Part shown: positions 10,221 through 52,599 of the stretch, piece after piece
Layout: each line of letters begins with the position of its first letter
Numbering within the stretch: the first letter of the stretch is position 1
DNA from: a bacterium
GTDB taxonomy: Bacteria; Acidobacteriota; Aminicenantia; Aminicenantales; Aminicenantaceae
DNA length: 64,000 bases
Direction of reading: 5' to 3'
Assembly (NCBI GenBank): GCA_018335295.1
Contig: JAGXKI010000005.1
Coordinates: forward strand, 20,658 to 84,657
Notes under the pieces: generated by a model
The model's database searches: none
What the model saw: the letters and a program-made list of their open reading frames with translations, nothing else
Told to the model about the DNA's origin: nothing
Translations under genes and position numbers: made by a program

Positions 10221-10249
10221 TTTATACCCAAAGATTTTTCCACTGTCAA
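10221..10249 (-). promoter_or_regulatory. Putative sigma70-type promoter for the his operon (TTGACA, 17-bp spacer, TATAAA on the minus strand)
   Basis: The reverse complement of 10221-10249 reads TTGACAgtggaaaaatctttgggTATAAA, about 175 nt upstream of the hisG start. Confidence 0.4.
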
Positions 10250-11826: not shown

Positions 11827-12043
11827 AAAATGGGGACAGTACACCTAATTTCGTTCGAAAATAGCTATTGGCGAATCATATTCTTTTTAAGGATTGAATT
11901 CTGTCACGGGAGGCATCTGATAAGCGAGAAAGGCGAGACGGGCGAAAAAGCGAGAAATGAAAACATCCATACTCCCCATTCTTTATAAAAAGGTATCAAC
12001 CCTCCTTCCCGAAGAAAAACCATTTCCCGTTATACTCCGGTGA

Positions 12044-12321: not shown

Positions 12322-12394
12322 GAACCCTTTTCATTGGTTGAGGGTGGCGGAGCCGCCATGGGGAATTAGTAGTTCGAAAACAAATTTTTTTTGG

Positions 12395-14092: not shown

Positions 14093-14371
14093 TCGAATCT
14101 ATCTTCCCCCACCGGAGTCTATGACAATCCGCTTTTTCACTACGGTGTGTTCCATTGATTTTTAGGATTTTTCACTCTATTTATATAGATTATTTACAAG
14201 TTTTGTCAAATCTAAAAAAAACCAGTCCCGTTTTTAGAAAACAACCTCATTCCAGCAAACAGTCCATAGCTTGTCTTATCTCCTAGCAACCCCTAAAATA
14301 AAAAGAAATGGATATGTTCGAATTCATGTATAAAGACCAAAAGACCCGAATTTTCAATATCAGGATATTTC

Positions 14372-15352: not shown

Positions 15353-15664
15353 GAGGTCTGAGGAAATCATCTTCTAAAAATTTTTTTTAAAGTCAAAGCA
15401 AACAATTGTCAAAAATCTCCCCTTCTGTACAGGGCTTTTTTGTATCTCCAGACTCCATTATGCATAAATAATTGTGCATTTTTTCATAAAATTAAAAATT
15501 TCAGAAAATTTTGAGCTGAACTTTTCTACTTTTTCACAAAGTTATCCACAATTTGAGTGGAAAATTGAGAAAATGAACAGGGTTGTGAATTCTTTTTGCA
15601 ATTTCTATAATAAGTGTGTGGGATGAAAATGAATTGATTTTAGTCCATTTCCACGGGAAATCTC

Positions 15665-15982
15665 ATGTTTTTCTTTATCGGAGGTATTCAGCCAAAGACC
15701 GTCACCTTAGATGAAAACCCCCGTATCTGCCCCGCTTGCGGTCGTTACCAACTTTATTTAAAAAGAAGAGATCAATACTTGAGTGTCTTTTTTATTCCAC
15801 TTTTTCCGGTCAAAAAAGGTTCCCTCTTATTGATATGTGAAAACTGCAGTTCTGTCTTTGACCAATATGGAAACCCCATGAATAGGCCCATTGACTCCAA
15901 ATCCAATAGGAAATGCCCTTCCTGCGGAAAAGAAATCTCCCCTGCTTTTTCTTTTTGTCCTTACTGTGGGAACAAACTCTGA
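15665..15982 (+). CDS. Double zinc-ribbon domain protein
   Basis: 105 aa with CPACG...CENCSS and CPSCG...CPYCGNKL Cys pairs, and a hydrophobic middle segment. Confidence 0.5.
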   Translation: MFFFIGGIQPKTVTLDENPRICPACGRYQLYLKRRDQYLSVFFIPLFPVKKGSLLLICENCSSVFDQYGNPMNRPIDSKSNRKCPSCGKEISPAFSFCPYCGNKL

Positions 15983-15987
15983 AAATA

Positions 15988-17373
15988 TCAACAGAAAAAT
16001 TCTTTGCTCGTTTTCACCACTTTTGAAGAAAGACCCAGCACACCCACCATATTGATGATAACCACAAGGCCCAAGAAAAAATCCAGAAAAATCCACATAA
16101 ACTTCAATCCCCCTATAGCTCCAATAAAGCAGCCCCCCACATAGATCAACCGCATGGCCACAGAGAATTTGTAACCAAAAAGATAATAAGCCAGTTTTTC
16201 TCCATAAAACCCGATCACATAAATGGTGGAAATTACAAAAAGAAAAAGAGATGAACTCACCAGAATCCCCCCGATGGTTCCATATAATTCTGAAAAAGCG
16301 GTCGCCGGCATGGCCGAAGCTTCAATCTCTTTGTTCTGCCACACTCCCGTACATAGCAATACCAGAGCGGACATGGTTCCGATCACGATGGTATCGAAAA
16401 AAACACTGATCACTCCCCATAACCCCTGTCTAGAAGGATGATCGGTTATGGCAGCGGCATGAGCAATGGGAGCACTTCCCATTCCTGCTTCATTGGAATA
16501 AGCTCCTCGGGCCATCCCCCATCTTAAGGCCAAAAGAACAGCGCCTCCGGCGGTTCCCCCAAAAGCAGCCTTTCCCGTCAAGGCTCCTTTGAAAATCATG
16601 ACAAACACTTGCGGAATCACTTGGATATGGAAAAGGATGATTCCCACACAACCCATCAAATAGAGACTGGACATGAAGGGCACAAATTTTTCAGAAACTT
16701 TTCCCACCCTTTTGACCCCTCCCATCAGGATAAGTCCGATCATCACAGAAATGATCAAACCCGAAACAATAGGGCTGATTCCCAAGGATTTCCCAGAACC
16801 TGATGCGGAGTTGGCTTGAACCATAATACTGGAGAATATCTCCAGCATAAAAATAAAAGCAAAAAGACTGGAAAGAAAAGGGGATTTGAGTCCTTTTTTC
16901 AAATAGTACATGGGGCCTCCCACGTATTCGCCCTTTTCATTTTTTTCCCTGTATAAGATACTCAACACAATCTCTGAATATTTGGTGGCCATCCCCACAA
17001 ACGCCGTAACCCACATCCAGAAAATGGCTCCGGGCCCCCCAAAAAACAAGGCCACAGATGGTCCGATGATGTTGGAAGCTCCCACTGTGGAACCCAGTTC
17101 AGCAGTGACCGCTTGAAAAGGAGTGATGGTTCCCTTTTTATTGCTTTCTCTCTTTGATCTCCTGAACAGAGCTCCTAAAGTTTGACTCCATACATAACCG
17201 AAACGGCGGAACTGGATAAACCTCAACCGGAAAGTAAGAAAAAGGCCTCCTCCGACCAGAAGGAAAAGCAGCGGCGCTCCCCATAAGAATCCGGTGATGC
17301 TGTTTATAAGAGTTTCCAATGACTCCATACTCAGGGCTCCGAAAAAGGAGAGATACATTGATTCTGAAATCAC
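15988..17373 (-). CDS. Alanine/glycine:cation symporter (AGCS family)
   Basis: The polytopic membrane protein has AGCS-typical N-terminal motifs (FLWGAPLLFLLVGGGLFLT, FQAVTAELGSTVG). The true start may be an internal Met. Confidence 0.85.
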   Translation of the reverse strand: MISESMYLSFFGALSMESLETLINSITGFLWGAPLLFLLVGGGLFLTFRLRFIQFRRFGYVWSQTLGALFRRSKRESNKKGTITPFQAVTAELGSTVGASNIIGPSVALFFGGPGAIFWMWVTAFVGMATKYSEIVLSILYREKNEKGEYVGGPMYYLKKGLKSPFLSSLFAFIFMLEIFSSIMVQANSASGSGKSLGISPIVSGLIISVMIGLILMGGVKRVGKVSEKFVPFMSSLYLMGCVGIILFHIQVIPQVFVMIFKGALTGKAAFGGTAGGAVLLALRWGMARGAYSNEAGMGSAPIAHAAAITDHPSRQGLWGVISVFFDTIVIGTMSALVLLCTGVWQNKEIEASAMPATAFSELYGTIGGILVSSSLFLFVISTIYVIGFYGEKLAYYLFGYKFSVAMRLIYVGGCFIGAIGGLKFMWIFLDFFLGLVVIINMVGVLGLSSKVVKTSKEFFC

Positions 17374-17483
17374 AACTATAACACAACATTTTCGGGAGAA
17401 AAATATTCTTACGGATTTGACCGTATTCTGAAGCTGTGATAAAAGGTTTCTTCATGGATTCAAATTTTTTCGAGGAGGAAAAG

Positions 17484-19682
17484 ATGAAACGATTTCTTCA
17501 CTTATCTTTCATCATTTCTTTTATGGCTTTTATTTTTCTATCCCTTGTACCTTTTACCTATGCTCAATTAAGAGGAAAAGCCCTTTATGAAAGATTGACC
17601 GAGGATGAAGATCTAATAAAATTTAAAGGAATTTCCAAATTTCACTGGACTCCTGATGGAAAAGCTATCTATGTTTATAAAGAAGGAACATTCCAAAAAA
17701 TCCATATCCTTACAGGCAAAAAATCTCCCCTCTTCGACCATAAAGCTCTCATTTCCGCCTATAATGAAATCACACACAAAAACCTGGATAAACTGCCCTT
17801 TAAGGATTTCACTTTTATGGATGAAGGACAAAAAATTCGTTTCAAAGTCCAAACCAAGGGCTATATCTATGATCAAAACACCCAAAAGATGATTTCTTAT
17901 GTTCCTAAAAAAAAGGTCAGGGGAGTCCGGGGAAGAGTGTATACCGAAGTCTTTTCTCCCAATCTGAAATACAGAGCCTATACAAGAGATTACAACCTGT
18001 ACATCCGAGATATGGAAGGAAAAGAAACACCCCTAACAACCAACGGCCATAAAGAGTTGCGGAACGGCTTTCCTGACTGGGTCTATCCTGAAGAACTCAG
18101 CCAGTACAAAGCTTTTTGGTGGTCTCCCGACTCCCAAAAGATTGCTTTTATGCAGTTTGATGAACATCCCGTAGTGAAATACCCCATTGTCCACGATACC
18201 GATCCGAACCCCCAGATGGAAATGCAGAGTTATCCCAAAGCAGGAACCAACAACCCTATCGTCAACCTGTTCATTGTGGATATTCAGAGTCAAAAAATCA
18301 CTCGCATTGAAACCGGTACTGAATCCAATGTTTACTTCCTGAGAGGAAAATGGACTCCAGACAGCAAAGAATTCACCTTTCAAAAAATGAACAGACTTCA
18401 AAACCAGATTGAACTATGGGCGGCTGACCCGGAAACAGGAAAAGTCCGGCATATCCTTAAAGATGAAGACAAATGCTATATTCAGGCTGACTTTGATCTC
18501 ACATTTCTTAAAAACAGTCCCCGTTTCCTTTGGACCTCTGAGAGAAGCGGCTGGAATGAAATTTATCTCTATGATTTGAAAGGGAACCTAGTCAAACAGA
18601 TCACTCATCAAAAATTACCGGTTCTTTCTCTAGTGGATGTAGATGAAGAAAACGGCTGGATCTATTTCACCGGAGCAGAAAACAGAGGGATGGAATTTCA
18701 TTTTTACCGGGTCAAAATGGACGGGTCTGAATTCACCCGATTGACCCAAAAACCAGGCTCTCACCGAATCAGTCTTTCCCCAGGAACTCAGTATTTTGCA
18801 GACACTTTCAGCTCCTTTGAGACTCCCAAAAAAATCACCCTTCATACAGCCAACGGAGAATTTATTAGAGAGTTAGGGCATTCTGTCGTCAGTGAAGAAT
18901 TTCAAAACTTCCAACTTATCAAACCTGAACATTTTGTTTTTAAGTCCGCTGAGGGGAACTACAATCTGGATGGACTCTTATACAAACCCGCCCACTTTGA
19001 TCCCCATAACGAATACCCTCTTATCCTCTCGGTTTACGGAGGACCTGGCTCCAAGATGATCCGAAACCGGTTCATTATGGATGACAGAAGGCAAGCTCTA
19101 TCCCAACTGGGTTTCATCGTCTTATCCATAGATCATCGAGGGGTCTCCAGACGAGGAAAGAAGTTCCAGAATTTGATGTACATGAATCTGGGAGAAATCG
19201 AACTGGCCGATCATACGGCAGCAGTGAAACATATCGGAGAACGGACCTATGTGGATCAAAATAGAGTCGGAATAACCGGACATTCCTACGGCGGATACCT
19301 CACCTGTATAGCGCTACTTAAAGCTCCCGAAATGTTTGATGTGGGAGTGGCAGGAGCTCCTGTTACTGACTGGAGAAATTATGACACTATTTATACCGAA
19401 CGCTACATGCGCAGACCTCAGGATAATCCTGAAGGTTACAAGAAAAGTTCCTGCATGAATTATGCCGAAAATCTCAAGGGGCATCTCTACATTCATCACG
19501 GGTGTGTGGACAACAACGTCCATCCCGGAAACACCATCCAGTTGATTCAAGCTCTGCTCAAACACAATAAAAAATTCGATCTGATGCTCTATCCAGAACA
19601 GCGACACGGAATCCGGTTTGAACGCTACCCGGAAGCCCGAGTGGAGTACTTTATTGAACACCTAAACCCCGAAGTAAAATAA
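17484..19682 (+). CDS. Secreted S9B-family serine peptidase, dipeptidyl-peptidase IV-like (beta-propeller + alpha/beta hydrolase)
   Basis: Signal peptide after the Met preceded by GAGGAGG. The catalytic Ser is in GHSYGGY. A C-terminal Asp/His region and the DPP-IV N-terminal propeller length are present. Confidence 0.85.
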   Translation: MKRFLHLSFIISFMAFIFLSLVPFTYAQLRGKALYERLTEDEDLIKFKGISKFHWTPDGKAIYVYKEGTFQKIHILTGKKSPLFDHKALISAYNEITHKNLDKLPFKDFTFMDEGQKIRFKVQTKGYIYDQNTQKMISYVPKKKVRGVRGRVYTEVFSPNLKYRAYTRDYNLYIRDMEGKETPLTTNGHKELRNGFPDWVYPEELSQYKAFWWSPDSQKIAFMQFDEHPVVKYPIVHDTDPNPQMEMQSYPKAGTNNPIVNLFIVDIQSQKITRIETGTESNVYFLRGKWTPDSKEFTFQKMNRLQNQIELWAADPETGKVRHILKDEDKCYIQADFDLTFLKNSPRFLWTSERSGWNEIYLYDLKGNLVKQITHQKLPVLSLVDVDEENGWIYFTGAENRGMEFHFYRVKMDGSEFTRLTQKPGSHRISLSPGTQYFADTFSSFETPKKITLHTANGEFIRELGHSVVSEEFQNFQLIKPEHFVFKSAEGNYNLDGLLYKPAHFDPHNEYPLILSVYGGPGSKMIRNRFIMDDRRQALSQLGFIVLSIDHRGVSRRGKKFQNLMYMNLGEIELADHTAAVKHIGERTYVDQNRVGITGHSYGGYLTCIALLKAPEMFDVGVAGAPVTDWRNYDTIYTERYMRRPQDNPEGYKKSSCMNYAENLKGHLYIHHGCVDNNVHPGNTIQLIQALLKHNKKFDLMLYPEQRHGIRFERYPEARVEYFIEHLNPEVK

Positions 19683-38351: not shown

Positions 38352-40688
38352 TTATCTTTGAAAACAGAACTGACGGAGAAATTTAACAGCTTCATCACAT
38401 CGACGGAAGGTGGGAACACCGGATTTTTCAAGAAGTTCAGCCATAGGATTATAAAGCACTCCCGAATCGATGTTCACCACAAAAGGCTTATCGGTTTTCC
38501 TGAATACATCCACCAATCTTAAAGCAATACTTCCCTTCTGAGTGACGTTTTCTTTATGGTAAGGGGAAGTTTCTAGGGTCTGCATAGCGGGCGTCATGGG
38601 AACCGGAGAAACCACCGCACAATCTACCCCCGGATCCTCCAGGATAAGCTGAACACAACAGCTAAAGGTCAAATCATCGGCCACTGGAGTCACGTCTAGG
38701 GGATTCTTAATATCTTGAAGACGGTCAATACCCAAAGGCTCCAGGACCTGGGACAATTTTTTCATAGTCTGAGGAGAAAAGCGGGCCAGTTTCAATTTTT
38801 TTTCGTTTTCCAGATTATCGGACATGATCACACATTCAAAACCTGCATTGCTGATCAATCCCACCCGGGAACCCTTGATTGGTTTATCCTTCAAGAAACA
38901 CAGGTTCCGGATATTGTTTTCAAACTCTAACAAACTGTCAGCAAGAATCACTCCGGATTGTTCTAACATCCATCGGGTAACCCGGTAATTTCCGGCCACC
39001 GAAGCAGTGTGGGTGGAAGTAGCATTCTGTCCTTCCTGGCTTCTTCCTGCTTTATACACCAGGATCTTCTTTCCTTCCCTAACCATTTCCTGGGCGGTTC
39101 GAACAAAAGTTAACCCTTCCGAAGGAAGAAATCCCTCCACATAAACAGCTATTATCTGAACCTCTTCCTTCCTTCTCAAATAATTCAGGTAATCCGGTAT
39201 ACTCAGGTCTATTTGATTTCCCACAGAAATGGCATATACAGGGTCAATATAAGGAATTTTGCTCATCCGTGAAATCATAAACGCGCCACTCTGACTTATA
39301 TAGGCCAATTTGGATGGAAACACATCTTTCCGGGGTGGATGGTAAAGCTTATACTTAGGAATGAAAGTGGTATCATACTTTCCCGGCCTGGAATATATTC
39401 CCAAACAGTTCCCCCCATTCACCACTGGAGTTTTCTTCCCCTTTTTTCTTCCTGACTCCAGAAGAGATTTAATGTCTTTCTCTAAAGAATAAGTTCCCGC
39501 TTTCTCTCCGATTCCTCCTGAAATGATGATGGCGGAACGGGCTTTCTCCATCTCCACCGCTTCTCTCATCACCTTATAACTCTGATCAGCTGAGACAGCC
39601 AGGATAAATAAATCCACACACTGGGGAATTTCGGAAACAGAAGGCACACAAGGACATCCCTCCATTTCACTGACTCCGGGTTTGACCACATAAATCCGAG
39701 ACTTAGAAAAACCTTGGCGGAGGACATTGTTCAGTATGATGTGTCCGGTATTCATTTTTTCCGAAACTCCAATGATGGCCAGGGTTCGAGGATGGAGTAG
39801 GTGATGGATTTGTTCCAGGGGTCGAAGTCTTGATTTCTTGTGTTTTCGAGAGAAACGGCAAGTCCCATCCAGAGGAACCAGTTTTTTCTCACTCACCACA
39901 AAAGGATTCACTTCTGCTTCCTCGATGACATATTCACTTTGGTTATTAAAGGGAGAGAAATACCTTCCCAGCCTTTGAAACTTTTGATAAATGTTTTCCA
40001 GTTCCTTCGAAGAAATCAGAGGTTTCCTTCCCCTATATACACCTGTGAGCTTATCATAGAAAGCCAGAGACTTCAGCATCTTTGGGATATCCTTTTTCTG
40101 GAAAAGATGAACCGAGGCTATAGATGAGGCCTTCCCTAGTCTAAGCTTTTTATGGAGAAATTCCACATCCACCCCTCCTATTCCCACAGTCAGTACAGGC
40201 CCAAATTCCCTGGTTGATCTCAAACCCATGAGGAGTTCAGACCCAAAACCTACTTTTTCAAAATCCACTTCTTCACACACCAAGACCCCAAGAATTCCCT
40301 TCTTCACCTGATCCAAAGAAATGCTGGGGAGTCCTTTCTGATTTCTTCTCTGACCACTCCAACGGATACAATTTTCAGGTACATTTTTAAGCATTTTCTG
40401 GATAGTTTGGTTCACTTCCCGCACATTTTTGGAGACAAGCTTGACTCCTCCCACATCAGACTTATGGAAAATGTAAGGAGAAACAATTTTAATCACCACC
40501 TTTGGGGATCGGATGGAAGAGAGTTCATCCTTTTTTACTTCTTTTCCTTTTTCCACAAATAAAAAATCAGGAGTCCGGATTCCCAATTCCTTAAGCACAT
40601 TGTAGACCTCATGCTCCAGAAAAAAAGACCTGTCTTTTTTCTCCGCCGTTCTGAATAGTTTTTCTATCCTATCAAAATAGGGTTTCAT
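38352..40688 (-). CDS. acd: ADP-forming acyl-CoA synthetase (ACD), fused alpha/beta form (ATP-grasp + CoA-binding + ligase-CoA domains)
   Basis: 778 aa. The N-terminal ATP-grasp is of ACD beta type. The central CoA-binding Rossmann region reads RTLAIIGVSEK...GHIILNN and succinyl-CoA-synthetase-like regions follow. It is the last gene of the iorAB operon. Confidence 0.8.
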   Translation of the reverse strand: MKPYFDRIEKLFRTAEKKDRSFFLEHEVYNVLKELGIRTPDFLFVEKGKEVKKDELSSIRSPKVVIKIVSPYIFHKSDVGGVKLVSKNVREVNQTIQKMLKNVPENCIRWSGQRRNQKGLPSISLDQVKKGILGVLVCEEVDFEKVGFGSELLMGLRSTREFGPVLTVGIGGVDVEFLHKKLRLGKASSIASVHLFQKKDIPKMLKSLAFYDKLTGVYRGRKPLISSKELENIYQKFQRLGRYFSPFNNQSEYVIEEAEVNPFVVSEKKLVPLDGTCRFSRKHKKSRLRPLEQIHHLLHPRTLAIIGVSEKMNTGHIILNNVLRQGFSKSRIYVVKPGVSEMEGCPCVPSVSEIPQCVDLFILAVSADQSYKVMREAVEMEKARSAIIISGGIGEKAGTYSLEKDIKSLLESGRKKGKKTPVVNGGNCLGIYSRPGKYDTTFIPKYKLYHPPRKDVFPSKLAYISQSGAFMISRMSKIPYIDPVYAISVGNQIDLSIPDYLNYLRRKEEVQIIAVYVEGFLPSEGLTFVRTAQEMVREGKKILVYKAGRSQEGQNATSTHTASVAGNYRVTRWMLEQSGVILADSLLEFENNIRNLCFLKDKPIKGSRVGLISNAGFECVIMSDNLENEKKLKLARFSPQTMKKLSQVLEPLGIDRLQDIKNPLDVTPVADDLTFSCCVQLILEDPGVDCAVVSPVPMTPAMQTLETSPYHKENVTQKGSIALRLVDVFRKTDKPFVVNIDSGVLYNPMAELLEKSGVPTFRRCDEAVKFLRQFCFQR

Positions 40689-40741
40689 CTCATCCCCTTT
40701 TTTTCAATCCAACTCTATTTATCGCTAAGGCATACTTTTAT

Positions 40742-41320
40742 TCAAGTTTTCACGGCTTCCTGACCTAAATAGAAAGCCTGGATATTCATATCCACTAAAC
40801 TCCTCCCCCGGGATTCAAATAAAACTTGAATGAAACGGAGAAGATTTTTTTCTTTTATGATCAAATGACGAGAAGCCGCGCCTAACATCACCATATTCTG
40901 AGTTTTAGCAGATCCAGCTTTCCGGGCCAGCTTCAAAGAATCAATCAGTCTCGCCTCATTCACCTTTCTTACTTGGTTGATGACTTTGTCCCTATCTGGG
41001 TAATCAGGAATATTCTCATAAGGAGATTGACTGGTGATGATTAAGCCTTCAGGAGCGAGATATTCAAGGTACCGGAGGGTTTCCAGAGGTTCCACACTTA
41101 AAATCATGTCCGCTTTTCCCTTGGGGATAAGATCACTGTAGATAGAAGAATCGGAAAGGCGAAGATGAGACTGCACAGCCCCTCCTCTTTGGGCCATTCC
41201 GTGCACTTCTGCCTGCTTAAAATTTAAACTTTCTTTCAAAGCGGCATTGTCGATCACAAAGGCAATGGAAAGGATTCCCTGCCCTCCAACTCCAGCTAAT
41301 ATCACATCTTGTTTCATCAC
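40742..41320 (-). CDS. iorB: Indolepyruvate:ferredoxin oxidoreductase beta subunit (2-oxoacid:Fd oxidoreductase gamma-type)
   Basis: MMKQDVILAGVGGQGILS N-terminus. About 190 aa, immediately following iorA. Confidence 0.75.
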   Translation of the reverse strand: MMKQDVILAGVGGQGILSIAFVIDNAALKESLNFKQAEVHGMAQRGGAVQSHLRLSDSSIYSDLIPKGKADMILSVEPLETLRYLEYLAPEGLIITSQSPYENIPDYPDRDKVINQVRKVNEARLIDSLKLARKAGSAKTQNMVMLGAASRHLIIKEKNLLRFIQVLFESRGRSLVDMNIQAFYLGQEAVKT

Positions 41321-42922
41321 TCAGCCTCTTTTTTTCTTCCTTTTCCGTGCTTCCTGCACACATTCCCGGGATGCTATGATTACAGAAAGACCCTTGTAAT
41401 CAATTTCTTCCTTCATAACTCGGATATTTTTCTCTTTATTTTTAGGAAGAGGAGTGATCACCCGGATATGTTTTTCCTCCACTCCCACTCCCCGGGCAAT
41501 CCGATCCAATTCTTCTCCGCTAGCAAAAGTGGGTTGCCCTCCGGTCATGGCCACAACTTCGTTGTCCAGGATGATCACGGTCATATTGGCTTTCACTCGA
41601 GCGGCATCCAAAAGAGGCGTGATCCCTGAATGGGCAAATGTGGAATCTCCGATCACCGCAATTGAAGGATCCACTCCTGCATCGGCTCCTCCCTTAGCCA
41701 TACTCACACTGGCTCCCATGCATACGCAGGTATGAACTGCATTATAGGGGGGGAGGGCTCCCAGAGTATAACATCCTATGTCACTAAATACGTTAGCCCC
41801 GCTCCGAGACCGGAGAACTTCATTCAATGCATGAAAGGTATCCGCATGGGGACATCCCTGACAGAGTTTGGGAGGACGAGAAGCCAAAGGGCTATCTTCT
41901 AAAAAATGAGTGGAATAAGGGGGCATTTCCAAAGCTTTGCGTACCAGGTCAGGAGACAATTCTCCAGTTAAGGGAAGATCACCGCTTAACTTACCTTTAA
42001 TTTTTTTTCCAGAAATCCCAAATTGACCTCTCAAATTTTTTTCAATGAAGGGGTATCCCTCTTCCACTATTAAGAGGGTTTCCACCTGTCTGACCAGGTC
42101 CTGAATCAAATTTGCCGGCAAAGGGTAGGCACCTATTTTCAAAAGCGAAGGAATGGCGTTATTTTGAAGATAATTTTCTAAAACATAATTATAAGCAATT
42201 CCCGAAGTGATAATTCCCAGTTGGGAATTTTTCTTGTTAAGGGTTAAGGAATTAAATTCGCTGCGGTTGGATAATTCAACTAGGTTAGGCTGCTTTTCTA
42301 CTAATATTTTAAACCTCCGTCGGGCATTCACAGGAAGAAGAGTCCAGTCTTCCCACTTTCCGTATTGAATAGAATCTGGCTTTTGCGAGGGATAGGGTTG
42401 GACCCTGGAACGACTGTGAGAGAGACGAGTGACCAGTCGAACCATCACCGGAACATTCGTTTTTTCAGAAATGTCAAAAGCTTTCCGGGTCATTTCATAG
42501 GCTTCCTGAGGATTGGAAGGCTCAAAACAAAAAACTTGGGCAAAGTGAGCGTAGTACCGACTGTCCTGCTCATTTTGAGAGCTGTGCATACTGGGGTCAT
42601 CCGCAACAGCTACTACCAAACCTCCGTTTGTACCGGTAACGGCTGAATTCATGAAGGGATCTGCCGCCACGTTCAAACCCACATGCTTCATGGATACTAA
42701 GCTTCTTCTTCCTGCAAAAGAAACGCCCAGTGCTTCTTCATAAGCCACTTTTTCGTTCACACACCAGGAGGCATGGAAATTTTTCCTTTTTTGACTTGCC
42801 TTTATCAAATACTCCATGATTTCAGAGGCGGGGGTTCCAGGATAAGAATAGGCTTTATAGAGTCCCGCGTGAATGGCTCCTAAACCCACAGCCTCATCAC
42901 CAAGCAAAATTTCTGATTTCAT
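41321..42922 (-). CDS. iorA: Indolepyruvate:ferredoxin oxidoreductase alpha subunit (TPP-binding, with Cys-rich ferredoxin-like segment)
   Basis: TPP-binding GDG-type region (DDPSMHSSQNEQD and VAVIGDSTFAHSG), and Cys clusters CQGCPH...C and C-terminal CVQ. 533 aa. Confidence 0.8.
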   Translation of the reverse strand: MKSEILLGDEAVGLGAIHAGLYKAYSYPGTPASEIMEYLIKASQKRKNFHASWCVNEKVAYEEALGVSFAGRRSLVSMKHVGLNVAADPFMNSAVTGTNGGLVVAVADDPSMHSSQNEQDSRYYAHFAQVFCFEPSNPQEAYEMTRKAFDISEKTNVPVMVRLVTRLSHSRSRVQPYPSQKPDSIQYGKWEDWTLLPVNARRRFKILVEKQPNLVELSNRSEFNSLTLNKKNSQLGIITSGIAYNYVLENYLQNNAIPSLLKIGAYPLPANLIQDLVRQVETLLIVEEGYPFIEKNLRGQFGISGKKIKGKLSGDLPLTGELSPDLVRKALEMPPYSTHFLEDSPLASRPPKLCQGCPHADTFHALNEVLRSRSGANVFSDIGCYTLGALPPYNAVHTCVCMGASVSMAKGGADAGVDPSIAVIGDSTFAHSGITPLLDAARVKANMTVIILDNEVVAMTGGQPTFASGEELDRIARGVGVEEKHIRVITPLPKNKEKNIRVMKEEIDYKGLSVIIASRECVQEARKRKKKRG

Positions 42923-43182: not shown

Positions 43183-43626
43183 GTGCTACTCATGATAAGG
43201 CTTTCAACAAAAGGACGGTATGGAACCCGGTTGATGCTGAATCTAGCCCATCATTACGACAACGGAAATGAATCAGTAATTCTCAAAAATGTTTCCCATG
43301 AAGAAGATATATCCATCCGCTATTTAGAACAAATCATCATTCCGCTCAAAATCAACAAATTGGTTAAAAGCATTCGGGGGGCCGGAGGGGGGTACACTTT
43401 GTCCCGTTCTCCTTCCAAAATTAAACTCAGTGATATTCTTGAAGCTCTAGAAGGCCCCTGCTGCCTGGTGGAATGTGTGGATGATGAAGACTATTGCGAC
43501 CGCATTCCTACCTGTGCCACTCATGAAATTTGGGAGAAAGCCAGCCACATGCTCAAGAACTTTTTCGAAAGCACAAGTCTCCAAGACCTCATTGAAATCA
43601 GCAGAAAAAAGAATCCAGAAACTTGA
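43183..43626 (+). CDS. Rrf2-family transcriptional regulator (IscR/NsrR-like, 3-Cys cluster ligands)
   Basis: MIRLSTKGRYGTRLM is a winged-helix N-terminus. C-terminal CCLVEC...C cysteines are present. Confidence 0.8.
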   Translation: MLLMIRLSTKGRYGTRLMLNLAHHYDNGNESVILKNVSHEEDISIRYLEQIIIPLKINKLVKSIRGAGGGYTLSRSPSKIKLSDILEALEGPCCLVECVDDEDYCDRIPTCATHEIWEKASHMLKNFFESTSLQDLIEISRKKNPET

Positions 43627-45625: not shown

Positions 45626-46804
45626 TTAATTTCCGGAAGTTTTTCCTTTTCCTAAAGGCGACATTTCCCGAAGTCTTTCCACAATCGGGGGAAGAAGGTC
45701 AATCACTTTCTCTACATGTTCTTCGGTATTGTCCTTCCCTAGACTAAACCGAAGAGAGCCATGAGCTGTTTCTGAATCCACACCGATAGCTGTCAGCACA
45801 TGGGAAGGTTTTAGAGAACCAGATGTGCACGCAGAACCACTGGATGCCGCTATCCCTTGGGCATCCAACTGAAGAAGCATAGACTCTCCTTCGATGTAGC
45901 GAACACAGATATTAAGGATACCCGGCAGCCGCCGTTGAGGATGACCATTGAGCTTTACATCTTCAATTTTTTCTTTTAGGCTTTTTTCCAACCTATCTCT
46001 TAGTTTCTGTATCCTTTTTTCCTCTTCTTTCCCTTCCTCCATGGCAATCTCGACGGCTTTTCCTACTCCCACAATACCGGGAATATTCTCAGTCCCAGCT
46101 CTTTGGTTATTCTCATGATGCCCTCCGTGAAGAAGGGAATGAATTTGAGTTCCTTTCCGTATATACAAAGCCCCCACTCCTTTAGGACCATACAATTTAT
46201 GGGCCGATAAAGAGAGAAGGTCTGCATTCAGTTTATTGACATTGACGGGGATTTTCCCCACACTCTGGACCGCGTCAGTATGGAAGTAGACCCCTTTTTC
46301 TTTGGCTAATTCCCCTATTTCTTCCAAGGGTTCAATCGTTCCCAATTCATTATTGGCATGCATAATGGAAATAAGACTGGTTTTATCAGTGATTGAATTT
46401 TCAAGCTGTTCCAAATCCACTATACCGTTTTGATCCACTTCTAAATAAGTCACTTCAAAACCTTGTTTTTCCAGCCATTTACATGTATTTAAAACAGCAT
46501 GATGTTCGATAGAAGAAGTGATGATATGATTTCCTTTCTCTTTGTTGGCAAAGGCTATTCCCTTGAGGGCATGATTATCTGATTCGGTACCACATCCAGT
46601 GAACACGATTTCTCCCGGTTTTGCACTGAGCAACCTGGCAACTTTCTCCCGGGCCTCCTCTCGAGCTTTTTGAGCCTCTTGGGCTAATCTGTAAAGGCTT
46701 GATGGGTTCCCGAATTTCTTATCAAAATAAGAAAGCATGGCCTCAATCACCCGTCTGTCCGTAGGAGTGGTGGCACTATGATCTAAATAAATCTTCTGTT
46801 TCAT
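45626..46804 (-). CDS. iscS: Cysteine desulfurase (NifS/IscS class)
   Basis: IYLDHSATTP, the PLP lysine in SAHKLYGPKG, and the active-site SSGSACTS. The start is set at the Met whose ATG overlaps the upstream Rrf2 TGA (ATGA). Confidence 0.85.
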   Translation of the reverse strand: MKQKIYLDHSATTPTDRRVIEAMLSYFDKKFGNPSSLYRLAQEAQKAREEAREKVARLLSAKPGEIVFTGCGTESDNHALKGIAFANKEKGNHIITSSIEHHAVLNTCKWLEKQGFEVTYLEVDQNGIVDLEQLENSITDKTSLISIMHANNELGTIEPLEEIGELAKEKGVYFHTDAVQSVGKIPVNVNKLNADLLSLSAHKLYGPKGVGALYIRKGTQIHSLLHGGHHENNQRAGTENIPGIVGVGKAVEIAMEEGKEEEKRIQKLRDRLEKSLKEKIEDVKLNGHPQRRLPGILNICVRYIEGESMLLQLDAQGIAASSGSACTSGSLKPSHVLTAIGVDSETAHGSLRFSLGKDNTEEHVEKVIDLLPPIVERLREMSPLGKGKTSGN

Positions 46805-47238
46805 TTCCTTCTCCTGTTTATAAATGTCCAAGGTTCCATCTTTTCTTGAGATAATGCCAGGTCTTTTAGAGTTTTGGACTGTAAAGTGTTTTTTATAGAT
46901 TCCCGAACCGATTTCCACAGATCCACGGTGACGCATCTCTCCGATTTTTCACACGCTACTGGATTCTCCATACAGTCCATTGTAACCAAGGATCCCTCCA
47001 GAATTTTAACGATTTCATAGCACCGCAATTCCTCTGGAGGCTGAGAAAGAATATATCCTTCTTTTTTTCTTTGAATCAACCCCTCAGCTCGGATAGTTTG
47101 AAGGATATGGTCCAAGTACTTCATAGAAATTCCTTCCTTTTCTGCAATTTCTTTGAGCAGTAAAGGACCTTTTCTGTAATGCCGGGCCAAAATCACCATA
47201 GCCCGCATCCCATAACGACTTCGTGTGGAAATCTTCAT
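46801..47238 (-). CDS. iscR: Rrf2-family regulator, IscR-like, first gene of the iscS-nadA operon
   Basis: MKISTRSRYGMRAM..., cysteines in CMENPVACEKSERC, and translational coupling to iscS. Confidence 0.8.
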   Translation of the reverse strand: MKISTRSRYGMRAMVILARHYRKGPLLLKEIAEKEGISMKYLDHILQTIRAEGLIQRKKEGYILSQPPEELRCYEIVKILEGSLVTMDCMENPVACEKSERCVTVDLWKSVRESIKNTLQSKTLKDLALSQEKMEPWTFINRRRK

Positions 47239-47244
47239 TTTTTT

Positions 47245-47267
47245 CTACTATTCTAGTAGAATACTAG
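47245..47267. promoter_or_regulatory. Near-perfect 23-bp palindrome in the iscR promoter (candidate IscR autoregulatory operator)
   Basis: CTACTATTCTAGTAGAATACTAG has a core TATTCTA-G-TAGAATA that is exactly palindromic. It lies 7 bp upstream of the iscR start, in the divergent region shared with the cytochrome operon. Confidence 0.45.
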
Positions 47268-47385
47268 ATTTTAAAATCTTCTTCCTTCACTGTCAAGTTT
47301 CCAAGGGCCGATTTTTAAAATCCTCGACTTTTTATAAATTATTTTGTTAATTTCTTGACAGTTCATTAAACTTTTTATTAAAAAC

Positions 47386-48285
47386 ATGGAAGGAAAATCA
47401 TATAAAATGGATAGGAAGGAAATTTATATCACTCTTCTCACCTCTTTGGTGATCCTTTTTGGCTTAATATTCTTTTTAAAAAGTCTCAAGGGAGAGGATC
47501 AAAAAAATAAAAAATCCTATGCAGGGACAAAAATGTGCCGTTCTTGCCATGAGGAACAATATCAAAATTACAAATCATCCGTTCATTTTCTCATTGAACA
47601 AAATAAAACCCCTGGTTATGGCTGTGAAACCTGTCATGGTCCCGGAAGCAGCCATGTGGAGTCCGGAGGAGGGATAGACAACATTTTCTCCTTCAAAGCC
47701 CCCATTTCTTCAGCCAAAAAATCCGAAAAATGTCTTCAGTGTCATTCCAGCGATAACGTCAATTTTACTTTTCGGGAAAGCGACCACATGAATGCATCGG
47801 TGGCCTGTTCTGACTGTCACCAATCTCATCCTTCTCCAGGTAAGGCTATGCTTTCCGGCGAGGAGGGTTATAAACTTTGTCTCGAATGTCATCCAGCCAT
47901 CAAGTCGAAACTGTTGCTTAATGAGAGTCACCGGATTCTCGAAGGAATAGTCAAATGTGTTGATTGTCACAAAATCCATCAAAATTCCCTCAGAAAGCAT
48001 TTAGGAGGATTCAAACAAAAAATATGCTTTCAGTGCCATACAGAAAAGCAAGGACCTTTCCTTTTCGAACATCCAGCCGTCCAAACAGAAGGATGTGTCA
48101 TCTGTCATGAACCCCATGGTTCAGTCAACCGCCATATGCTGAGTTATCAGAATACGGCGGACCTGTGTTATTCTTGTCATATCTCTGTTCCTTTCTGGCA
48201 TTCCAGGTTTACTTCTCGGTCCATGTGCACTAACTGCCATACAGCCATTCACGGTTCCCATCTGGATCCCTTTTTTCTTAAATAA
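47386..48285 (+). CDS. Decaheme c-type cytochrome, MtrA/PioA/MtoA-like (periplasmic/porin-inserted electron conduit)
   Basis: Ten CxxCH motifs in ~300 aa (CRSCH, CETCH, CLQCH, CSDCH, CLECH, CVDCH, CFQCH, CVICH, CYSCH, CTNCH). There is an N-terminal signal/anchor. Confidence 0.85.
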   Translation: MEGKSYKMDRKEIYITLLTSLVILFGLIFFLKSLKGEDQKNKKSYAGTKMCRSCHEEQYQNYKSSVHFLIEQNKTPGYGCETCHGPGSSHVESGGGIDNIFSFKAPISSAKKSEKCLQCHSSDNVNFTFRESDHMNASVACSDCHQSHPSPGKAMLSGEEGYKLCLECHPAIKSKLLLNESHRILEGIVKCVDCHKIHQNSLRKHLGGFKQKICFQCHTEKQGPFLFEHPAVQTEGCVICHEPHGSVNRHMLSYQNTADLCYSCHISVPFWHSRFTSRSMCTNCHTAIHGSHLDPFFLK

Positions 48286-48302
48286 AAGAATGAGAGGATA
48301 AA

Positions 48303-50192
48303 ATGAGAAAAGTTAGTTGGATCTTTTTCTTTTTCATCCTTTCTTTCATCACGGGTCCATCTTTTCTAAAAGCCCAAGAAGAGGATTGGAAGATAAAGGG
48401 TCGATTTCAACTGGGATACCGTTATGTAGAGGTTAAAGGAAACACCCATAAATACTATGAAGATTTAAACCTCCGGCAAGGACCCCGCCTCCTTGATTTA
48501 GATTTTAACCTTCACTCTTCTGAAAAATTCAAAAAATATTTCGATTTTTTTAATGTGTATGCCTCCAAATTGGGAGGAGATCCCTTTGAAAATTATGGAG
48601 TAACGATTAAAAAATACGGCCACTTCAATTTTCGTTACGGACATCGAAAATCAACATACTTTTATAAAGACACTCTCCTTCCTGAAAATAAAAGTGATTT
48701 CCATTTGAGCACAGGAGGAGATTTTCATACATTTAACTTCCGTAGGTTTTTTGACAATTTCTACTTTGATGTGAAACCTTTGAACAACGTAAAGTTCATT
48801 CTCTCTTTCAATCGACAAAAAAAATCAGGGGAAAGCACCACTACTCTTGATTACAGCAGAGATGAATTTGAATTGAAACAGCCTCTCCATGAAATCAAGA
48901 ATACTTACAGTGCGGGAGTTCAGATTAATTCTCAATGGATGGATTTATTCATGAAAGGAAGCTATTGGGATTATGAAAACAAATCTCATCTTTTCCTTCC
49001 CGGCTTTTCTCCAGGAGCGGATGCAAAAAACATTTCTCATCCCACCGAACTTCTCTCCTATGAACTGAGAACTCCCTATCAATTCTCCATGCCCATGTTA
49101 ACAGCTAAAATCAATACCAATCCTCTTCCTCAACTGCAGACCACCTGGAACTTGGTTTATTCCCTTATGGATATGGAACTGGATTATGAAGAAGAAGCTC
49201 AGGGAACTAATTTTCAAGGATTCTCCACTCGATACGAGTATACAGGCACTTCCCAACTCAAACGTCAGAGCCTCTTGATCGACTTGGACCTTTCTTATAG
49301 GGCTTCGGAAAATCTTTATCTTCTTGGAAATTACCGTTCTCAGAGCTTGAATCAGGAAGGAGATTTATCCATCGATGAGAATTCAATCCATTCCTGGTAT
49401 GACCTCTCTACTTCAATTTTCGAGCTGGGGACTCAAATCATCCCTTTTGATAATTTCCAAGTGAGTGGAGGTATTCTGTTCCAATCCAGAGAATCATCTT
49501 ATCAAATAAAAGAAGAACAAACACGACACACAGAAAGGACCACTTTTTTCATTAACTCCTCTTATCATTTATCATCGATTGTAAACATCAAAGGAAAGTA
49601 CGAAAAAGGATCTTTTCATCAGCCTTATACTCTTATTAGCCCGACCGATTTGGATGAGTTCAAATTAAGGATGAAATTCTCTCCTTTAAAGAAAATGAAA
49701 CTTCTTCTTTCTTTTTCCCATAAAGACTTGACCAACCAGGATTCAGGCGGAACCCTTACCTCCCTCTCTTACGGTTTCGACTTAAACTACCAATGCCTTC
49801 CCAATCTGAGCATAGATGGAGGATACTCCAGGCAAAAATTCAAGACCTCGGTGGTAAATTTAGTGGTTTACGAAGCTCCAGCCTGGGCTCCCCTTTTGGG
49901 AAGCGAAAAATCCTGGAACAGCACTTATCAAAGTTCCACGAACATGTTTCGGGGAAGCCTGAATTATCAAGCCTTCAAAAACCTCTCCTTAAAGGGATGG
50001 GTGTACCACTATAAAAATTCAGGAACATGGAAACTGGATTGGACCACCTTTCAGGTTTATGCCGGCTATACCTTTCCCAATGGTTATCTTTTGTCTTTTT
50101 CTTACAGATGGACAGCCTATAATGAAGCCATGTTTGACTTTGATGATTATTCTTCCCATATCTTTACGGTAGGGTTTGGTTACAAATTCTGA
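48303..50192 (+). CDS. Outer-membrane beta-barrel protein, MtrB/PioB-like porin partner of the decaheme cytochrome
   Basis: Signal peptide MRKVSWIFFFFILSFITGPSFLKAQE. 629 aa rich in alternating aromatic/polar beta-strand patterns. The C-terminal GFGYKF ends in Phe, an OMP signature. It begins 18 nt after the cytochrome stop. Confidence 0.55.
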   Translation: MRKVSWIFFFFILSFITGPSFLKAQEEDWKIKGRFQLGYRYVEVKGNTHKYYEDLNLRQGPRLLDLDFNLHSSEKFKKYFDFFNVYASKLGGDPFENYGVTIKKYGHFNFRYGHRKSTYFYKDTLLPENKSDFHLSTGGDFHTFNFRRFFDNFYFDVKPLNNVKFILSFNRQKKSGESTTTLDYSRDEFELKQPLHEIKNTYSAGVQINSQWMDLFMKGSYWDYENKSHLFLPGFSPGADAKNISHPTELLSYELRTPYQFSMPMLTAKINTNPLPQLQTTWNLVYSLMDMELDYEEEAQGTNFQGFSTRYEYTGTSQLKRQSLLIDLDLSYRASENLYLLGNYRSQSLNQEGDLSIDENSIHSWYDLSTSIFELGTQIIPFDNFQVSGGILFQSRESSYQIKEEQTRHTERTTFFINSSYHLSSIVNIKGKYEKGSFHQPYTLISPTDLDEFKLRMKFSPLKKMKLLLSFSHKDLTNQDSGGTLTSLSYGFDLNYQCLPNLSIDGGYSRQKFKTSVVNLVVYEAPAWAPLLGSEKSWNSTYQSSTNMFRGSLNYQAFKNLSLKGWVYHYKNSGTWKLDWTTFQVYAGYTFPNGYLLSFSYRWTAYNEAMFDFDDYSSHIFTVGFGYKF

Positions 50193-50434
50193 AACTTAAT
50201 GTCATTTATCTTTGCGTAAAGCTCTTGTTCCTTTTGATGATTTTTCAGAATATAAAGATCCCAAAAAAAAGCATAATTTGCTCCGAAAGCTTTAAAAAGT
50301 GAACTCTCTGAAGATAATTACAAGCGTGAAAGAAACATTTTTCCCTTCCTCCAAAGTCTGCTTAATGGAAGGAAAGCTCCTATTGGCAAAAATAGGGCGC
50401 TTCTTTATTATAAAAAAATCAGAATAATAAAATC

Positions 50435-51790
50435 ATGACCTCAAAATCAATCATTCGAGCCTTCAGTTCGGTTAAACTCACCCTTTTCCTGATCATTATA
50501 CTGGTAGTTTCTCTTGGGATAGGGACTTTGATTCCTCAGCAAAAGTCTTCTTCATTCTACCACTCCCATTACGGCCCCTGGAGTCCTCTCTTTTTGAATC
50601 TTCAGTTGAACGATCTTTATCATTCGGTATGGTTCTTAACTCTTCTCGGAATGTTGATCTTGAATACGGTGGCGTGCACTATCCGGAGGCTAAGTCCCAA
50701 ATGGAACAGAATTTTCAGACCTCAAGTAATTAAAGAGAAAAAAAATATCCAAACTTTATCCCTCTGCGATCATTTCATCAGTTCAAGGAATATAAAAAAA
50801 GTAAAAAGGTCTATCCAAGAAAACCTTTCTTCCTATCATTATCGGCTTCGCGAGGCTGGGCAAGGGGCCAAGATATATTTCCTAGCAAGAAAAAAGATCA
50901 TGGGGCTGTGGGGGCCCGAAATAGTTCATACAGGCATTCTTATCATTCTCCTCGGTGGAATAGTGAGCGGATTGGGAGGGATGACAAAATATCTTTCTCT
51001 TCGTCCTGGTGAGGTGGCATCCATTCCTCAATCTGAATATAAAATCCAACTAAAAAATTTTGATATCGAGCGCTATCCTGGAGGAAACATTAAAGACTGG
51101 AAGAGCACTCTTTCTATTTTGAATAACGGAAAACCTGTCTTAACTCAAACCATTGAAGTGAATCATCCTCTTTCCTACAAAGGTTTCCTTTTTTATCAAA
51201 ACAGCTGGGGACGGGATTGGAAAAATCCATCCTTAGAAATCTGGGCCCAAAAAAAAGATGGGTCTTCTTCTCCCAAAACGCTCCATCTCAAACTGAGAAA
51301 GAAGGTGGAGTTGGAGGAGGGACTTTACCTTTCTGTTAGACGATTTCTGCCCGACTTCGTTCTGACCGCTCAAAACAAAGCTACCTCTCGTTCCGATCAA
51401 CCCAGAAATCCTGCCGCTTTTATCCAGGGATGGAGAGGAAATAAAACGGAATTTTCTGGATGGATTTTTGCACGGTTTCCTCAAATGAATATGATCAACT
51501 CCGAACATTCCCTTTCCTGGCAGTTCAAACTCCAAGATTACTCCCCCAACCGTTTTTCCGTCATTCAGGTTTCCAAAGACCCGGGAGTAAACTTTATCTG
51601 GGCCGGGTCTGCCGTGATTATGATAGGGCTGCTTTTGGCTTTTTACTGGCATCACAGAGAAATCAGAATCATCATTGAAAAAATCAACGGCCAAATCCAC
51701 ATCTGGATGGGAGGAACCACACCTAAGGGAGCCGAAACATTCAAGCGTGAATTCAAAGAAATTGTAAAGTCTATAAGGAGGAAAAATTGA
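50435..51790 (+). CDS. ccsB: System II cytochrome c biogenesis protein ResB/CcsB
   Basis: N-terminal MTSKSIIRAF...LTLFLIIILVVSLGIGT, with a large periplasmic domain and a C-terminal TM segment. It is paired with ccsA. Confidence 0.8.
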   Translation: MTSKSIIRAFSSVKLTLFLIIILVVSLGIGTLIPQQKSSSFYHSHYGPWSPLFLNLQLNDLYHSVWFLTLLGMLILNTVACTIRRLSPKWNRIFRPQVIKEKKNIQTLSLCDHFISSRNIKKVKRSIQENLSSYHYRLREAGQGAKIYFLARKKIMGLWGPEIVHTGILIILLGGIVSGLGGMTKYLSLRPGEVASIPQSEYKIQLKNFDIERYPGGNIKDWKSTLSILNNGKPVLTQTIEVNHPLSYKGFLFYQNSWGRDWKNPSLEIWAQKKDGSSSPKTLHLKLRKKVELEEGLYLSVRRFLPDFVLTAQNKATSRSDQPRNPAAFIQGWRGNKTEFSGWIFARFPQMNMINSEHSLSWQFKLQDYSPNRFSVIQVSKDPGVNFIWAGSAVIMIGLLLAFYWHHREIRIIIEKINGQIHIWMGGTTPKGAETFKREFKEIVKSIRRKN

Positions 51791-52599
51791 ACATTTCCCT
51801 TTATTTTCTGGGTTCTTTTCTCATTTATATTCTTTCTACCGCTTTCTATTATGGTTATTTGTTCTCACAGAAAAACAAGCTGGCCCGGATAGGTTCAGCT
51901 ACTGCTGGAGTAGGATTGATTATCCACACACTCGCTCTCATTTTAAGAACCTTCCAAAGCGGCCATGCTCCTTTCACCAACATGTATGAATCCTTATCTT
52001 TTCTGGCTTGGTCTTCTGTTCTTGCCTACTTGATTGTGGAGAAAAAATACGCTTTCAAAAAAGCCGGGCCTTTTCTTATGCTCATCGTTATCGCGCTGAT
52101 GGCTCTGGCTTCCTCACCTTTAATGTCCAGCGAAGCCACTCCATTGGTCCCCGCTCTTCAAAGTTATTGGTTATGGCTTCATGTTTCCGTCACCCTTCTA
52201 GGAGAAGCATTTTTCGCTGTAGCCTTTGTGACCAGTATCCTCTATCTTTATGTAAGATCAAAAGATAAAAGGGGGGCTTCTTCCCCCTTATCGGCTCAAA
52301 AATTGGATTTCATCAGTTACAGAGCTATCGCCCTAGGATTTCCTCTTTTTACTTTAGGGGGTCTTGTCTTCGGTATGATTTGGGCTTATAAAGCCTGGGG
52401 AAGCTACTGGAGTTGGGACCCTAAGGAAACCTGGACTCTCATCACTTGGTTTGTATTTGCTCTTTACCTTCATACTCGAATTGTTTGGAGATGGAGGGGA
52501 TTTCGTTCTGCGCTGATCGCCGTTCTTGGCTTTTTAACAGCCATGTTCACCTACTTCGGAGTGAATTATTTGATCACGGGGCTACACAGCTACACTTAA
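51787..52599 (+). CDS. ccsA: System II cytochrome c biogenesis heme-handling protein CcsA/ResC
   Basis: The WGSYWSWDPKETW tryptophan-rich WWD motif is present, with flanking His-containing TM helices. A TTG start overlaps the ccsB stop. Confidence 0.85.
   Translation: MNISLYFLGSFLIYILSTAFYYGYLFSQKNKLARIGSATAGVGLIIHTLALILRTFQSGHAPFTNMYESLSFLAWSSVLAYLIVEKKYAFKKAGPFLMLIVIALMALASSPLMSSEATPLVPALQSYWLWLHVSVTLLGEAFFAVAFVTSILYLYVRSKDKRGASSPLSAQKLDFISYRAIALGFPLFTLGGLVFGMIWAYKAWGSYWSWDPKETWTLITWFVFALYLHTRIVWRWRGFRSALIAVLGFLTAMFTYFGVNYLITGLHSYT

Follow-up and report, generated by a model that had tools for sequence, protein, structure and literature searches.

A divergent MtrAB-type gene pair, probably encoding a porin-cytochrome conduit, at a reduced locus of an Aminicenantes bacterium

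Anoxic sediments and aquifers harbour abundant Aminicenantes, a group whose members are generally regarded as fermenters. Does a member of this group encode a route for electrons across its outer membrane? The question is raised by a 64,000-nt stretch of contig JAGXKI010000005.1 (hereafter, the window), in which the gene for a decaheme c-type cytochrome is followed by a gene for an outer-membrane beta-barrel and by two cytochrome maturation genes. A preliminary description of this DNA attributed to the pair an architecture of the MtrAB/PioAB/MtoAB type, and our analysis supports this assignment by a match to the DmsE/MtrA decaheme model TIGR03508, an alignment with the MtrA chain of a solved complex (6r2q_A), an MtrB fold of the barrel, and the pairing of the two genes across related loci. 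We consider it highly likely that the two genes encode an MtrAB-type porin-cytochrome conduit, and the pair is a genuine, divergent member of a known, widespread system. The host is an uncultured Aminicenantes bacterium, and the RuvB protein encoded in the window is ~79% identical to RuvB of several Aminicenantales/Aminicenantes metagenome-assembled genomes (MAGs).

The decaheme cytochrome and the outer-membrane barrel

An open reading frame (ORF) map and a six-frame scan for multiheme ORFs covered the whole window and yielded a single multiheme ORF, the cytochrome gene at 47386-48285, which carries exactly ten CxxCH motifs. Its product had been presented as a secreted protein of ~300 aa with ten such motifs, and this was confirmed, whether the protein is taken as the 299 aa of the complete ORF or as the 292 aa read from ATG 47407. 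The latter is probably the true start, because the closest homologues are 292 aa long, the gene of a close relative (L086) is called there, and a GGAAGGAAA site precedes it; the signal peptide is probably cleaved after SLKG. The cytochrome scored 209.8 bits with TIGR03508 (cut-off 192.2) over profile positions 1-256 of 258, and aligned with Shewanella baltica MtrA (PDB 6R2Q chain A) at E 1.1e-35, residues 44-292 versus 60-324, with all ten CxxCH motifs in register. Across 36 homologues the ten motifs are invariant, as are 9 further histidines, and 2 more are near-invariant, which, as read from the alignment, is enough for bis-His ligation of the hemes. The preliminary description had also allowed for a grouping with NrfB/c3-type proteins; given the score above the TIGR03508 cut-off and the end-to-end match to 6r2q_A, the cytochrome is instead classified, by its sequence, as a member of the DmsE/MtrA family.

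The barrel gene translates, as described before, into a 629-aa protein with a signal peptide and a C-terminus ending in ...GFGYKF. Its N-terminus reads MRKVSWIFFFFILSFITGPSFLKA up to a cleavage site before QEE (a classical signal peptide, ...FLKA/QEE), and its last residues are ...FTVGFGYKF. A model of the barrel built with AlphaFold2 (AF2) from a 51-sequence alignment was all-beta, with a predicted local distance difference test (pLDDT) value of 90.1 and a predicted template modelling (pTM) score of 0.81. The strands run from residue 30 to the C-terminus and, because the first of them starts so early, the protein has no plug domain. In a Foldseek comparison of this model with the PDB, MtrB (6r2q_B) came first (E 6e-18, template modelling (TM) scores 0.70/0.68), whereas the remaining matches, all of them TonB-dependent transporters, reached TM scores of 0.50 at most. 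Two structural methods both ranked MtrB first, no other target aligned over 540 residues, and the fit of 22-strand transporters to the model was much poorer. As the modelled protein superposes over these 540 residues on a 26-strand barrel, its predicted size would be about that of MtrB. With MtrB as the top fold match and no plug, the barrel is not of the FadL or TonB type that had been raised as an alternative.

These matches also bear on the possibility that the cytochrome is a periplasmic carrier of the NrfB/c3 type that happens to lie next to an unrelated general porin or transporter. Partial matches of the cytochrome to NrfB, NrfH and c3 models point in this direction, as does a Pfam search that assigned the barrel to no family at all. 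However, the NrfB match (E 2e-10) covers only the N-terminal half of the cytochrome and scores far lower than the MtrA matches, the best fold match of the barrel is MtrB over 540 residues, and the two genes are paired in nearly all related loci (see below), so that we regard such a carrier as extremely improbable.

Several results weigh against the conduit reading. The curated MtrB/PioB models, Pfam PF11854 and NCBIfam TIGR03509, do not match the window barrel, and a sequence profile of the barrel family, compared with the PDB, does not detect 6r2q_B, returning only a chance match to natterin (E 0.31). DSSP assigns 27-28 strand segments to the barrel model and does not settle cleanly on 26. 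The heme-free AF2 model of the cytochrome is poor (pLDDT 60.7, pTM 0.39) and gives no support for a rod shape. In addition, the window lacks genes for a quinol dehydrogenase of the inner membrane, a periplasmic shuttle and a surface cytochrome.

Because the sequence profile failed to find MtrB, to which the barrel is only 14% identical, homology between the two is shown by the fold, and the barrel belongs with MtrB/PioB by fold and gene context, not by sequence models. Of 51 barrel homologues, 19 match PF11854, all below threshold (best E 2.8e-10), and NCBIfam searches with ten distant representatives of the barrel family gave no link to TIGR03509 above noise. The sole curated-model match of the window barrel is a weak one to the Geobacter GSU2204 family (32.7 bits; cut-off 350), and GenBank lists this exact protein, on an 87-kb contig, as "hypothetical protein KGY73_02615 [bacterium]".

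Within the barrel family, N-terminal heme domains are fused to some members, namely P0412 (941 aa), with two CxxCH motifs in the first ~330 aa, and P0458 (738 aa), with one. These proteins are MtrB-like barrels with a built-in cytochrome, a concept that recalls Cyc2 and the GSU2204 family.

Gene pairing, selection and clusters in relatives

The barrel family comprises 1361 clusters at 50% identity with E <=1e-3, of which 243 remain at E <=1e-30. We located it in 80 genome loci of Aminicenantes, Thermoanaerobaculia, Vicinamibacterales and other Acidobacteriota, and also of Gamma- and Alphaproteobacteria such as Woeseia. Of the 74 related loci with enough sequence, which span several phyla, 72 have a multiheme gene immediately upstream of the barrel gene, and in 69 it carries exactly ten motifs.

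Both genes of the window are under purifying selection: compared with L086, a 90%-identical relative, the ratio of nonsynonymous to synonymous substitution rates (dN/dS) was 0.205 for the cytochrome, against 0.078 for the initial part of the barrel. At 97 of 98 sites, the stretch that precedes ATG 47407 (47309-47406) is identical to positions 1-98 of L086, while the synonymous sites of mtrA differ at 21%, indicating that the mtrA promoter region is under constraint, as are the genes. This conserved stretch contains a TTGACA box and a palindrome, GATTTT-T-AAAATC (47310-47322), and may hold an unrecognised regulatory element.

In a neighbour-joining tree, the window barrel stands at the base of an Aminicenantia clade. 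A recent horizontal acquisition of the pair was considered and rejected, as the GC content of the cluster (0.40) is unremarkable, lying inside the range of the window, and the barrel branches with other Aminicenantia. The pair is common in Aminicenantes and appears to be vertically inherited there.

The relatives show what may accompany such a pair. The Aminicenantia loci L004-L009 keep, in the same order as the window, orthologues of an Rrf2-family regulator (Rrf2-B, 68-79% identical), the cytochrome (53-56%), the barrel (44-49%), ResB and CcsA. In L006 (extension 12383-17748) the order Rrf2-mtrA-barrel-resB-ccsA continues with genes for a 17-heme protein that has an NrfH/NapC-like N-terminus, a Rieske protein, cytochrome b, and 9-heme and 4-heme cytochromes. 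L008 (10084-17119) contains, in addition, a histidine kinase, a sigma-54 response regulator and an 8-heme protein, and L001 (6909-17284) and L004 encode 8-, 11-, 9- and 19-heme proteins and two cytochrome b genes. Judging by their gene content, these extended clusters look like a complete quinol-to-surface chain. In a second Aminicenantes clade, a gene for a decaheme protein of ~720 aa directly follows the barrel gene, in the order mtrA-mtrB-decaheme (L030, L037, L040, L042, L046, L057, L058, L067 and L069; at about 9840-12000 in most). Neither the Pfam MtrC/MtrF domain nor NCBIfam recognised this protein as a member of the MtrC/OmcA family, and it may represent an unrecognised type of surface cytochrome.

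At the window locus, none of the Rieske, cytochrome b and extra multiheme genes of the relatives was found within the 64 kb. Downstream of ccsA, the window carries genes for a thiamine-binding protein, mnmA, yebC and ruvCAB, and the identical order, beginning with resB-ccsA, is present in an independent Logan assembly (SRR14023877, L087), so that the absence of downstream cytochrome genes is not an assembly artefact. The earlier statement that an MtrC-like partner is lacking is accurate for these 64 kb, where no other multiheme ORF exists. Such bare pairs also occur elsewhere, as 9 of the 42 loci that have at least 6 kb of sequence on each side lack any other multiheme gene in the vicinity. 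Either the partners are encoded elsewhere in the genome or the pair would operate as a bare two-component conduit like PioAB and MtoAB.

The absence from this locus of every extra cytochrome, Rieske and cytochrome b gene of the sister clusters could also mean that the pair is a non-functional remnant of a larger cluster for extracellular electron transfer, in the course of being lost from a fermentative lineage. We think this very unlikely, given that both ORFs are intact, all ten heme motifs are kept, dN/dS is about 0.2 and 0.08 in the comparison with a relative in which the pair is also retained, and the promoter-proximal stretch is conserved as described above; the maturation genes are likewise intact, with the WWD motif in place. 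This motif appears as WGSYWSWD in the CcsA translation, which scored 259.8 bits with TIGR03144 (cut-off 187.6), and we judge the system II maturation gene pair (CcsBA/ResBC) of the locus to be complete. In the same position, Aminicenantes relatives have ResB orthologues that are 41-49% identical to that of the window, and their CcsA is ~70% identical. The preliminary description called these genes dedicated to the conduit. Their adjacency is indeed conserved in Aminicenantes, ccsBA being co-located with the conduit pair in 13 of the 42 loci that have enough flank, but an exclusive role in the maturation of this cytochrome is not demonstrable.

Direction of electron flow and comparison with known systems

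We infer a physical complex of the two proteins, its heme loading and a direction of flow along the following lines. The decaheme would be exported by Sec, loaded by the neighbouring system II ResB/CcsA proteins with ten covalently bound bis-His hemes, and inserted into the lumen of an MtrB-like outer-membrane barrel with ~26 strands, where the heme chain, insulated from lipid, could carry electrons between the periplasm and the cell exterior. With outward flow, the catabolism of amino acids and peptides would pass its reducing equivalents to extracellular Fe(III), to humics or to a partner cell.

At a distance of 4 kb from the conduit genes, at 38352-42922 on the minus strand, an indolepyruvate-type 2-oxoacid:ferredoxin oxidoreductase (533 aa + 192 aa) is encoded beside an ADP-forming acyl-CoA synthetase (778 aa). 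The two form a classic module of amino-acid fermentation, which yields ATP and produces reduced ferredoxin. The window further encodes peptidases of the DPP-IV and tricorn types, an Na:alanine symporter and a tryptophanase-like lyase, a gene content that fits a peptide and amino-acid fermenter. The preliminary description had found a module for extracellular electron transfer unexpected in such an organism; the window does look peptide- and amino-acid-fermenting, but the pair is common in Aminicenantes, and its presence is no oddity.

Outward electron flow is our best guess, held with a modest lean. It is favoured because the clusters of the relatives resemble quinol-oxidising respiratory chains, with Rieske/cytochrome b, an NrfH/NapC-like anchored 17-heme protein and 9- and 4-heme cytochromes, and because the metabolism encoded in the window produces reductant. 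The direction remains a guess because oxidising and reducing MtrAB homologues are intermingled in published trees (PMC8805035), a point that counts against an outward assignment and also against the opposite one. That opposite direction, in which an MtoAB/PioAB-like system would supply the periplasm with electrons taken from Fe(II) outside the cell, from minerals or from a syntrophic partner, is a less probable but serious alternative. It agrees with the lack of an MtrC-like or other surface multiheme gene in the window, with the bare pairs in 9 of 42 related loci, and with the precedent of PioAB and MtoAB, which are two-component uptake/oxidation systems (PMC6831781; 10.1101/2024.09.20.614158; PMC7005843). 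Yet the window has the fermentation genes just described, that is, the 2-oxoacid:ferredoxin oxidoreductase, the acyl-CoA synthetase and the peptidases, and shows no CO2 fixation genes, photosystem or terminal oxidase that could serve as electron recipient.

Among characterised systems, the pair resembles MtrA-MtrB of Shewanella, the core of MtrCAB (6R2Q), in having a DmsE/MtrA decaheme, a barrel of ~630 aa with the same fold, and the adjacency of A followed by B. It differs from Shewanella MtrCAB in that the window locus has no mtrC gene and in that its barrel diverges beyond detection by a sequence profile. Its host also belongs to Acidobacteriota/Aminicenantia, not Gammaproteobacteria, and system II ccsBA genes are co-located with it. 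PioAB of Rhodopseudomonas palustris and MtoAB of Sideroxydans and Gallionella are likewise two-component, with no dedicated surface decaheme at the locus (PMC6831781, PMC7005843), but their hosts are photo- or chemolithoautotrophic Fe(II) oxidisers, in contrast to the amino-acid fermentation context of the window. Furthermore, the window has no PioC/HiPIP- or CymA(ES-1)-like partner, and the 292-aa cytochrome is missing the long N-terminal extension of PioA.

A third likeness is to OmcK (GSU2203) and GSU2204 of Geobacter sulfurreducens, a pair that is induced with iron oxides (PMC4070692) and whose GSU2204 family is listed among MtrB/PioB-type barrels in a recent review (PMC13188914). The window cytochrome reached 190 bits on the GSU2203 model, and the barrel matches the GSU2204 family. 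However, each score falls well short of its family cut-off (325 and 350 bits), and GSU2204-family proteins carry a CxxCH or Sec motif, whereas the window barrel has neither. A further likeness, in gene order, is with the Aminicenantia MAG clusters L004-L009, from which the window differs in having no 17-heme NrfH-like, Rieske, cytochrome b or 9-, 8- and 4-heme genes, and in a minus-strand block that splits Rrf2-B from mtrA.

The MtrAB-type conduit is widespread in Aminicenantes, often inside large cytochrome/Rieske-cytochrome b clusters, and this class-wide pattern points to an ability to exchange electrons with the cell's surroundings that has gone largely unnoticed and that bears on the cycling of iron and carbon. 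A survey of MtrCAB by Baker et al. extended to Acidobacteriia and Gemmatimonadetes, but an mtrC gene next to the pair was a requirement (PMC8805035). Our full-text literature search found no paper describing MtrAB in Aminicenantes, which is no proof that none exists, and in GenBank some relatives already carry the names DmsE-family cytochrome and MtrB/PioB-family barrel. As this barrel subfamily is missed by the curated MtrB/PioB models, surveys based on gene markers probably undercount it. Public taxonomy labels and the "hypothetical protein" annotation hide the conduit system as well. Many records with Aminicenantes-type clusters are titled 'uncultured Eubacteriales bacterium' (binchicken co-assemblies), including L005-L007, L009, L030, L032 and L040. 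The window itself contributes mainly a better annotation and an example of a stripped-down cluster; the class-wide pattern is somewhat more interesting.

Layout of the locus and its Rrf2-family regulators

The features of the locus are collected in Table 1. The cytochrome and barrel genes are separated by 17 nt (48286-48302), one less than stated earlier, and this gap carries a GAGAGGA ribosome-binding site. The placement of ccsB/ccsA after the barrel gene was given in the correct order, but a 242-nt gap with a promoter-like site within it separates resB from the barrel gene. An Rfam scan of the window found no RNA elements.

Table 1. Features of the putative conduit locus and its surroundings, with positions in the window
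Feature	Position	Strand	Remarks
MtrA/DmsE-family decaheme c-type cytochrome	47386..48285	+	ORF 299 aa; probable start ATG 47407, giving 292 aa
MtrB-like outer-membrane beta-barrel	48303..50192	+	629 aa, signal peptide, C-terminal beta-signal, no plug domain
ResB/CcsB (Ccs1), system II cytochrome c maturation	50435..51790	+	PF05140, 262.3 bits, full length
CcsA (ResC-type heme handling/lyase subunit)	51787..52599	+	PF01578, 169 bits; 4-nt overlap with resB
Rrf2-A, Rrf2-family regulator	46801..47238	-	PF02082, 96 bits; divergent from mtrA; called iscR in the preliminary description
Rrf2-B, Rrf2-family regulator	43183..43626	+	PF02082, 119 bits; probable start 43192
Candidate mtrA promoter	47355..47384	+	TTGACA, then AT-rich -10 region; read off the sequence, inside the highly conserved upstream stretch
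Promoter-like site before resB-ccsA	50383..50411	+	TTGGCA-17-TATTAT; 10/12 consensus match only
Rrf2-A promoter-like site and palindrome	47243..47296	-	promoter 47296..47268; palindrome TCTACTATTCTA/TAGAATACTAGA at 47244-47268

Two Rrf2-family regulators are encoded near the pair. With the IscR model TIGR02010 (cut-off 207.55), Rrf2-A scored 81 bits and Rrf2-B 117.5 bits, and Rrf2-B is also below the cut-off of the CymR model; by these profile scores, both are simply Rrf2-family proteins, not assignable to IscR, and the name iscR for the gene adjacent to mtrA does not hold. Three cysteines, in the arrangement C-X6-C-X5-C, are conserved in both, making an Fe-S- or redox-linked input through the Rrf2 proteins plausible. 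Rrf2-A heads a minus-strand operon that continues with cysteine desulfurase, nadA and a PP-loop ATPase. Its own promoter-like site, TTGACA-17-TAAAAT (47296..47268), is with 11 of 12 positions the best promoter match of the region in a consensus scan that missed the candidate mtrA promoter at 47355..47384.

The palindrome that had been regarded as an operator shared with the cytochrome cluster lies at this promoter of Rrf2-A. It is an inverted repeat of 12+12 nt at 47244-47268 (inverted repeats I1, I4, I5), and because it sits just past the -10 of Rrf2-A's own promoter, it suggests autoregulation of Rrf2-A rather than control of mtrA. The conserved mtrA-linked regulator is Rrf2-B, which is 65-80% identical to co-directional Rrf2 genes upstream of mtrA in 22 Aminicenantes loci, whereas Rrf2-A is only ~33% identical to the mtrA-linked Rrf2 of the relatives. 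In the window, Rrf2-B stands 3.7 kb upstream of mtrA with a four-gene minus-strand block in between, and, because the mtrA-linked regulator of the relatives matches Rrf2-B and not the adjacent Rrf2-A, the block of Rrf2-A, cysteine desulfurase, nadA and PP-loop ATPase appears to have been inserted between Rrf2-B and mtrA. The 22 loci with a gene of the Rrf2-B type are L005, L006, L008, L009, L010, L027, L029, L030, L032, L037, L040, L045, L046, L048, L049, L052, L057, L060, L067, L069, L073 and L083. Rrf2-B is better conserved than either MtrA or the barrel.

These regulators give some substance to an assimilatory or housekeeping role, in which a stand-alone MtrAB, left after the loss of its partners, would reduce Fe(III) for iron acquisition or serve as a low-flux redox vent under the control of an Fe-S-sensing Rrf2 protein. 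The synteny of a C-X6-C-X5-C Rrf2 gene with mtrA in 22 loci, its orthologue upstream of the pair here, the insertion beside mtrA of a second Rrf2 operon with cysteine desulfurase and the Fe-S enzyme NadA, the absence at the locus of the downstream Rieske/cytochrome b/multiheme genes of the relatives, and the continued purifying selection on the pair all agree with such a role. Nevertheless, all of these points are contextual, a search for an operator common to the Rrf2 genes and the mtrA promoter found none, and the partner genes may simply sit elsewhere in the genome, so we rate this role as distinctly unlikely. A broader proposal, which we regard as doubtful, is that a deep-branching peptide-fermenting Aminicenantia lineage lost the respiratory module at this locus and kept a bare MtrAB under purifying selection for a non-respiratory use. 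If this were true, the options would include venting of fermentative reducing power, or reductive uptake of iron, governed by an Rrf2 regulator of the Fe-S type whose gene keeps its synteny with mtrA class-wide. An MtrAB-type conduit that discharges catabolic electrons outward remains our preferred reading of the locus.

The motif of the window palindrome, TAGWATWCTA, is absent from all related loci, and no palindrome of the TATAGAATCTATA type is present at the mtrA promoter of the window. Palindromes resembling TATAGAATCTATA lie just downstream of the TTGACA box before mtrA in 7 of the 22 relatives (L006, L009, L030, L040, L048, L060 and L069), and these are about ten times denser at mtrA promoters than elsewhere in those loci, although the regions concerned are AT-rich.

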